A DNA stretch of 64,000 bases, taken from contig NC_083288.1 in assembly GCF_963506605.1 (NCBI RefSeq), forward strand, positions 43,028,001-43,092,000. The letters run 5' to 3'. Origin of the DNA: Zootoca vivipara (lineage: Eukaryota). The notes beneath the pieces are model-generated. The model saw only the letters and a program-made list of their open reading frames with translations, was not told the origin of the DNA and did no database searches. Shown piece by piece: positions 43,217 to 43,966 of this stretch. Positions within the stretch are counted from its first letter, which is position 1, and the number at the start of each line of letters is the position of its first letter. A program made the position numbers and the translations under genes.

Positions 43217-43966
43217 TGTGCTAAACAAATGGGGGATCATCTTAAAAGATGGTCCTGGTTGCGGGCAGGCCCTCAACCCAGTTCCCCTTACCCTGCCGTG
43301 GGCGGAGCAATACCCTCTTGCCAGGGTGGCGCCATGATCACCCAAGTCCTATTGGCCAATCATTTCATTTGGGGTGATCGTAGGGGGTTATAAACTCCTG
43401 CCCATCCCACCCCCTTTAATTTGGGTTTCCTTCGGCCTTGCTTTGGACTTCGGTTGGTCAGCCGTCTTGGGACGGGGACCAGGTAGGAATTTTTTCCCAA
43501 CTGGTAGATTGATATTAGCCTTTGGGTTTTTGCCTACCTCTTAGCAATCGTCACAACTTTGTAAGGTTTGTCACTTAGGCATTGGCTTATTGTTGAGTGG
43601 GGGAGGAGAGGTCAGCCATCGCCTGCCCCTCCATTGTTCAAGGGTATTCCATTAAAGGAATCTGGGACCTGGATCCTGTCCAAAGTCTGCTTGAAGGGCT
43701 AGGGACATGCCAGTCCTCTGGGAACACTGGGGGAGATGCAGGCGGGTTCCCCCGAAGCAGCTCCCTCTTTAGGTGGTTTACCCTTACTGACTTCCTGCAA
43801 AGGGGGCAGGAGTCCGATATGGAGTAGTCTTTTGCCAATGCCTAAGCCAAAACCGCTCACATTTGTTGTAATCAATAAAGTTGTGGCCAAATTTTGCCCA
43901 TTAATTTAAACTAAAATTCTGTGTCAGTGTGAATTTCTTTATTTCTAATGGGGGTTGGCTTGCAAA
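43217..43966 (+). mobile_element. Solo-LTR-like element immediately after the gene 4 stop codon
   Basis: CCAAT 43356, TATAAA 43389, AATAAAGTTGTGGCC 43874; flanking direct repeat AGCA(TG); homologous to the 36241 and 57044 copies. Confidence 0.72.

Follow-up and report, generated by a model that had tools for sequence, protein, structure and literature searches.

A conserved U-rich internal-loop hairpin in an LTR-like repeat family of the lizard Zootoca vivipara, a candidate ENE-like element shared with a bird-like non-coding family

Results

The V2R gene cluster and the placement of the repeat copies

The window, by which we mean the whole 64,000-nt stretch of Zootoca vivipara contig NC_083288.1 that was analysed, carries tandem receptor genes along its length that, from their translations, we take to be of the V2R type. 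Five V2R-type last exons lie in tandem on the plus strand between positions 1 and 56088, at a spacing of about 10–13 kb, and the first units of the cluster are 92–99% identical, which points to recent duplication. One last (7TM) exon frame, presumably of a V2R-type class C GPCR judging by its translation, runs from 42297 to 43214 (+) and closes with a TAG stop codon at 43212–43214. Copy A of a repeat family begins about 19 nt past this stop in sense orientation, and the first poly(A) hexamers downstream of the stop are those inside copy A. The other two hairpin-bearing copies are antisense relative to their nearest V2R genes, copy B sitting between V2R exons and copy C downstream of another V2R gene. 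Pieces of the family are found near three V2R 3′ ends (33902, 43233 and 57044). A run of 128 Ns at 56857–56984 lies just past the 3′ end of copy C. Elsewhere in the window a palindromic element occurs twice (35452–35587 and 52548–52693); it gave below-threshold Rfam scores to mir-5408 and is likely a repeat-derived hairpin.

An LTR-like repeat family

Hairpins A, B and C each lie inside a copy of an LTR-like repeat of about 720 nt. Copy A occupies 43233–43955 (+), its approximate ends being set by alignment to B and C, by the start of family pieces at 43233 and by a drop in family depth after 43955. Copy B (36241–37012, −) has a TATA box at 36859, an AATAAA at 36340 and an end in CA, and copy C (57044–58024, −) contains a secondary insertion of about 190 nt at approximately 57170–57355. 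This insertion, on the minus strand, has its own AATAAA and a flanking duplication of about 12 nt. Piece D (33902–34129, +) is a 5′-only promoter part without the hairpin and is 86% identical to copy B.

In copy A, ATTGG/CCAAT boxes (43351 and 43356) and a TATAAA (43389) make up a presumed promoter at 43351–43394 (+), and an AATAAA at 43874–43879 (+) falls in the most conserved block of the element (43831–43900, 80–91% identity between copies). The hairpin had originally been described as lying between TATA box and AATAAA, and so it does: the TATAAA starts at 43389 and the AATAAA, at 43874, follows 335 nt after the hairpin. Copies A, B and C share this layout: CCAAT-type boxes and a TATA-like box are followed 92–141 nt further on by the hairpin, and an AATAAA lies 330–340 nt past the hairpin (in C after subtracting the insertion). 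The strand of the hairpin is that of the TATA box and AATAAA in all three.

The ends of the element are less regular. A TG start is seen in copy C and piece D and a CA end in copy B, while the ends of copy A differ and the TG of copy B is deleted. Homology between the copies already sets in some 25 nt ahead of the TG, with a short palindrome that in copy A (43234–43255, +) is like the terminal palindrome of D and is weaker in B and C. A palindrome opens all four copies: 43234–43255 (+), 33907–33931 (+), approximately 36985–37010 (−) and approximately 58000–58024 (−). Placed before a TG-like start, it could be a polypurine-tract remnant or the end of a tyrosine-recombinase element, and would be unusual for a solo LTR. 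A target-site duplication of 4–6 bp was absent at the TG/CAATA ends of copy C, the sole copy with usable ends, and by eye no gag-pol-type frame was seen adjoining the copies within the window. Since the TG start lies about 25 nt inside the homology, with the palindrome, and copy C has no target-site duplication, the family is here called LTR-like only, with Gypsy, ERV or Ngaro as candidate classes; a Ngaro/DIRS-type terminal repeat was considered as an alternative class because of the terminal palindrome and piece D. What was originally proposed as an LTR family carrying an ENE-like element keeps its conserved, covarying fold on the sense strand; its assignment as a true LTR family is putative, with no duplication at the ends of copy C and no internal domain seen nearby.

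Sequence and predicted fold of the hairpin

The hairpin of copy A (43481–43539, +) has a 7-bp lower stem, an AA/G insert, a U6/U5 internal loop and a 5-bp upper stem. Read from its 5′ side, the lower stem is followed by AA, U6, the 5-bp upper stem with a 21-nt apical part, U5 and G, and the letters and the stem and loop parts are exactly those first described. It is both the minimum free energy and the centroid fold (−20.1 kcal/mol, z −2.7), with 2 of 200 shuffles equally good. Copy B (36670–36727, −) has a U4/U4 loop and an 8-bp lower stem if the pair 36669/36728 is counted, and copy C (57668–57724, −) has degenerate U tracts, U3CC/U3C. Both give a matching minimum free energy fold (z −2.5 for B and −2.3 for C), and copy C folds equally well on the opposite strand. 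The diverged minus-strand copies had thus been correctly credited with the same fold and, for copy C, with shorter tracts (U3/U3), but the 3′ tract of copy B is U4, not U5, and its lower stem is 8 bp long.

A pattern written from the three copies had three matches in the window against none in 100 shuffles, a circular comparison since the pattern was built from these copies. A generic ENE-like descriptor (at least four Us on each side, at least three flush upper pairs and at least six lower pairs), run on both strands of the 64 kb, found copies A and B only, copy C failing with its U3/U3. Fragments folded from the presumed start site onwards gave a lower-stem pair probability of about 1.0 in A, 0.63 in B and 0.98 in C, most loop Us being unpaired; in the context from the stop codon to the poly(A) signal, the hairpin of copy A was predicted at only 0.42. 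Several other predicted hairpins accompany it downstream of this presumed start. Conservation extends to the 3′ flank (43540–43570, +) of the module: its first 25 nt or so resemble the bird copies described below, and it forms a small predicted hairpin in the lizard copies. Further predicted hairpins at approximately 43595–43665 (+) and at their counterparts in B and C keep their fold in all three copies with little sequence identity. Rfam searches covering the window, the element and all five bird loci gave no match at the hairpin.

A bird-like repeat family with the same module

The lizard-derived pattern was also searched in metagenomes, where it had 39 matches, of which five were kept (L009, L010, L017, L036 and L039). 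Over stretches of up to about 2.4 kb these loci are 74–95% alike, and they resemble the host DNA of an amniote, likely a bird; L009 contains what we take to be a CR1 3′ end of avian type. They were chosen by a lizard-derived pattern and are counted as one family. The family is a multicopy non-coding segment of about 2.4 kb (for example L039:2815–3065 (−) and L010:783–1203 (−)), which may be a lncRNA family, and an AATAAA ends the shared segment about 1 kb downstream in L039 and L017. An open frame upstream was rejected as a gene: it had no Pfam match, no longer homologue and no Atlas match, no codon-position bias, gaps that shift the frame and 17 short predicted relatives.

The module, about 75–100 nt long, is arranged in tandem in the bird-like loci, with two strong and two to three decayed units about 170–200 nt apart. 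Unit 2 lies 170 nt downstream of unit 1, and weaker units flank both. Unit 1 has opposed tracts of U4/U6 and the AA/G junction of the lizard copies. Unit 2 has a C in place of the AA; since this C can pair with the G, the loop is flush and of canonical ENE appearance, with tracts of U7–8/U5–6, one of them interrupted by an A. Unit 1 of L039 was no more stable than its shuffles (z −0.14).

When the matches were scored outside the pattern letters only, the five bird loci ranked 1–5 of 39 for each lizard copy. A covariance model was then built from eight bird units alone and searched against the window with filters off. Its top matches, all on the sense strand, were A (45.4 bits, 43475–43547), B (33.8 bits) and C (29.7 bits), with the next at 11.7 bits; a sequence-only bird model likewise ranked A, B and C first (26.4, 17.9 and 12.5 bits; next 7.9). 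With default filters, the bird covariance model reached at most 14.7 bits on the remaining 34 metagenome pattern matches and 16.7 bits on 38 pattern matches from prokaryote genomes. The 34 were accordingly set aside as chance, and the prokaryote matches were rejected as instances of the module. Six of the latter (L046–L048, L053, L068 and L078) are one 73-nt match repeated in Defluviitalea phaphyphila, with no model score. In viral contigs the lizard-derived pattern had no matches and no CR1-bearing loci were found; a single viral-contig match to a 19-nt poly(A) block had no other similarity and was dismissed as chance.

Sensitive BLAST of the whole elements, aimed at other parts common to the lizard element and the bird loci, returned only 19–27-nt matches (E 0.26–0.95). 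On sequence grounds, the hairpin is a conserved module shared by the LTR-like repeat and an unrelated, non-coding bird-like family. The original prediction had gone further, to a module shared across retroelement classes and occurring in some turtle and frog CR1 3′ regions. The sharing is upheld by the bird-like family, through a bird-only model that ranks the window hairpins first, and the CR1 part of the prediction is borne out in part for the frog, where Xenopus CR1 offers only a 14-nt match to the 3′ arm. In the supplement of PMC4316615, which gives the 3′ UTR of the Repbase consensus CR1-2_XT, like its turtle entries, in trimmed form, 14 nt just after the ORF2/UTR boundary cut match the 3′ arm of the bird module letter for letter; the position of the 5′ arm would fall in the trimmed-off part, and the 3′ arm alone is visible. 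CR1-2_XT shares this arm with the module but is a LINE, not an LTR element. The supplement of PMC11303007 had no match to the module.

Covariation and conservation

Twelve units were aligned by fitting them to a structure model, with pairs numbered from the invariant inner pairs. In this alignment 97.2% of 141 cells pair, and four of the 12 pairs change on both sides. In the lower stem, two pairs occur in three Watson-Crick types each without loss of pairing. At pair 4, copy A has U-A, copies B and C have C-G and the bird copies have A-U; at pair 7, A-U is common to copy A and the bird copies, copy B has C-G and copy C has U-A. Pair 6 is G-U in copy B. The U-A to C-G swap claimed at the outset is therefore present, and a second position, with A-U, C-G and U-A, had been missed. 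The covariation score was 0.213; shuffles gave 0.059, with none of 500 scoring as high, and sliding the structure along the alignment gave 0.03–0.07. RNAalifold recovered both stems on the model-fitted alignment and missed the lower stem on a plain MAFFT alignment, owing to misregistration. The stem covariation comes from about three to four independent double changes, drawn from three lizard copies and one bird family, and is suggestive (p ~0.01–0.04 by a crude 1/3 rule).

All 12 units have the same two C-G pairs closing the loop above and the same two G-C pairs below it. U faces U in every copy, as U6/U5 in A, U4/U4 in B and U3/U3 in C, and the AA/G insert is kept in all three lizard copies (in C with an extra C) and in all five bird unit-1 copies. 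Identity of copy A to B and C is 0.67 over the hairpin, 0.64–0.65 over the preceding 90 nt and 0.34–0.61 over most of the element.

Family depth and RNA reads

Contigs of two DNA runs were aligned to the window at 80% likeness, giving 1437 and 1517 records. They pile up at 43522–43583 and 43832–43893, where the summed depth in run X1, which is not a copy number, is 40,000–84,000 against about 26–38 just outside the element. This depth fits a high-copy family, and it falls to near the single-copy level past 43955. Depth is 30–50 times lower over the 5′ arm of the hairpin than over the 3′ arm, and for this reason the contigs do not establish that the 5′ U tract is conserved family-wide.

From about 6% of one RNA run, 84 reads aligned, none at 99% likeness or above and 80 of them only partially, with both pair orientations represented. 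These reads derive from other copies of the family, and the V2R exon end had no reads in this part of the run. Members of the family are present in RNA; the reads do not distinguish the strand or the locus of copy A, and no RNA data set containing copy A was found. The idea that the element has been delivered into a chemoreceptor 3′ UTR accordingly holds for position (copy A in sense, about 19 nt past the V2R stop and carrying the first poly(A) hexamers) and is not matched by the RNA reads, with 0 of 84 at least 99% alike.

Discussion

The hairpin as a candidate ENE-like element

According to the available text of PMC13541005, an ENE has short helices on either side of a U-rich internal loop, which binds poly(A) through U-A-U triples and blocks deadenylation. 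In the accessible part of PMC7583470, the PAN element is described with five triples and three A-minor contacts, and four consecutive triples suffice in model helices. The U tracts and adjacent G-C pairs of the Evade ENE are essential (PMC12501189, available portion), and the invariant G-C pairs flanking the loop of our module match this need.

We lean, with modest confidence, towards the hairpin being a single-domain ENE-like poly(A) clamp. The poly(A) tail of the transcript would be held in four to six U-A-U triples by the U-rich internal loop, and this clamping would slow deadenylation and stabilise the RNA; transcription through the hairpin, the triple helix and the stabilisation are what we infer. 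With the AA/G insert, the lower junction of the loop would be a bulged variant, the canonical flush form being that of bird unit 2, and copy C has probably decayed or is a weaker version. Should the element be an LTR, the hairpin would lie in a long R region, about 65–110 nt past the presumed start. Each end of the genomic RNA would then carry it, the 3′ copy lying about 335 nt away from the poly(A) signal. Copy A could stabilise the preceding V2R mRNA only if that mRNA extends to 43874.

Measured against known ENEs, the predicted stem/U-rich loop/stem fold is present in A, B, C and the bird units. At least four opposed Us are found in A (6/5), B (4/4) and all nine bird units, and C has 3/3; copy B has four Us per side, and pairing of the AA with a U would leave it three on the 3′ side. 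G-C pairs stand directly beside the U tracts on the upper side in A, B and the bird units, and the lower side has the AA/G insert except in bird unit 2. Membership of the ENE class is not established, because criteria of binding and reporter stabilisation concern function and those of U count and G-C adjacency give mixed results across the copies. A double-domain ENE (dENE) was rejected, as each hairpin has one loop and the tandem bird hairpins are separate, about 170 nt apart. A triple helix of the MALAT1/NEAT1 type was likewise rejected, there being no long A tract after the hairpin (the longest in the window copies is A5) and no Rfam match.

As far as the accessible parts of PMC7583470 and PMC13541005 describe the KSHV PAN ENE, the window hairpin is like it in its stem/U-rich loop/stem order upstream of a poly(A) site, in its approximately five possible U-A-U triples and in the G-C pairs around the loop. 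Unlike PAN, it has its lower junction interrupted by an AA/G insert whose As are on the 5′ strand, lies 330–340 nt from its AATAAA and is hosted by a repeat, and its clamp is a predicted one. MALAT1 and NEAT1 also have a vertebrate U-rich internal-loop hairpin; they differ in their genomic A-rich strand and tRNA-like processing element, and the U tracts of the window hairpin are half as long. MALAT1-like loci are present in dozens of copies in a lizard (anole) genome, according to the available text of PMC10869381, citing Zhang 2017.

ENEs of transposable elements are reported from plants, fungi, slime mould and stickleback retroviruses in the accessible part of PMC7583470, and the last of these provide a precedent for an ENE in a vertebrate retroelement. 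The likeness to such transposon ENEs, including Evade in what is available of PMC12501189, lies in the retroelement context near the 3′ end, the single U-rich loop and the proposed protection from deadenylation. They differ in their non-amniote hosts, and most plant ones are double-domain in the accessible part of PMC7583470; the stickleback element was compared by its description, not by its sequence. In the literature searched, which covered few subscription papers, neither an amniote retroelement ENE or the module motif nor an ENE combined with an ERV or LTR was found. What is new here is the module common to a lizard LTR-like repeat and a bird-like non-coding family, transposable element ENEs, including those of stickleback retroviruses, being known already. 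Transposon ENEs, with the stickleback retrovirus ENEs among them, were reportedly described by Tycowski, Shu and Steitz in 2016.

A wider scenario, which we put forward only tentatively, is that of an ENE cassette as old as the tetrapods, which would have passed among CR1 LINE 3′ UTRs, the squamate LTR-like family and the bird non-coding family and would stabilise RNAs through its poly(A) clamp.

Other explanations

The hairpin may instead be a conserved structure in the RNA leader or 3′ end of a retroelement, with a different role such as export, packaging, TAR-like control of elongation or recognition by reverse transcriptase, the loop then serving as a protein or tertiary contact. We hold this to be rather unlikely, though a serious competitor. 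Copy C retains both stems despite its short U tracts, the AA/G insert is kept in every lizard copy and every bird unit 1, and the apical loop and 3′ flank are conserved although a plain ENE has no need of them. The hairpin also comes close after the presumed start, among several predicted hairpins, and CR1 3′ UTRs have been proposed as reverse transcriptase recognition sites in the available text of PMC4316615. Opposed U tracts closed by invariant G-C pairs are, on the other hand, the signature of an ENE; bird unit 2 has lost the AA and lengthened its tracts to U7–8/U5–6; and non-coding loci carry the module again, ahead of a poly(A) signal, without sharing any other part of a retroelement. 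This explanation owes its standing to the short tracts of copy C, the AA/G insert, the 0.42 probability in the V2R context and the several hairpins near the start.

Neutral history offers another account, in which a captured fragment of an ancient CR1-type 3′ UTR has no present RNA function and its stems were kept by DNA quasi-palindrome correction. Template switching can yield two-sided changes in inverted repeats, and could account for those in the stems; the independent changes are few, and at 0.67 the identity of the hairpin in A to that in B and C is not above that of the preceding 90 nt (0.64–0.65). Palindrome correction, however, should have turned one U tract into As, whereas U faces U in 12 of 12 copies, and chiefly for this reason we regard such a relic as improbable. 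The module moreover persists between lineages that are otherwise dissimilar, and most of the lizard element aligns at only 34–61%. That the likeness of the lizard and bird hairpins arose by convergence or chance, the hairpin being a family feature in the lizard only, would suit the choice of the bird loci, a single family, by a lizard-derived pattern, and the short BLAST matches between whole elements (19–27 nt, E 0.26–0.95). Set against the placing of these loci at ranks 1–5 of 39 for each lizard copy by letters outside the pattern, and against 72 other pattern matches without a model score, this is very hard to credit.

Implications

If the ENE-like reading is true, a high-copy amniote ENE would extend poly(A) clamping by retroelements to reptiles and birds, transposon ENEs being so far reported almost only from plants and fungi and from one fish retrovirus. 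The copies offer natural variants, with AA/G or flush junctions, tracts from U3 to U8 and single or tandem arrangement, and the insertion 19 nt past a V2R stop codon makes an effect on host mRNA stability directly testable. A module common to unrelated repeat families would show the exchange of an RNA-structure cassette. Should the cassette scenario hold, a copy in the 5′ R region could catch the tail and join the ends of the genomic RNA for strand transfer, and thousands of dispersed copies would constitute a portable stability element for host transcripts.
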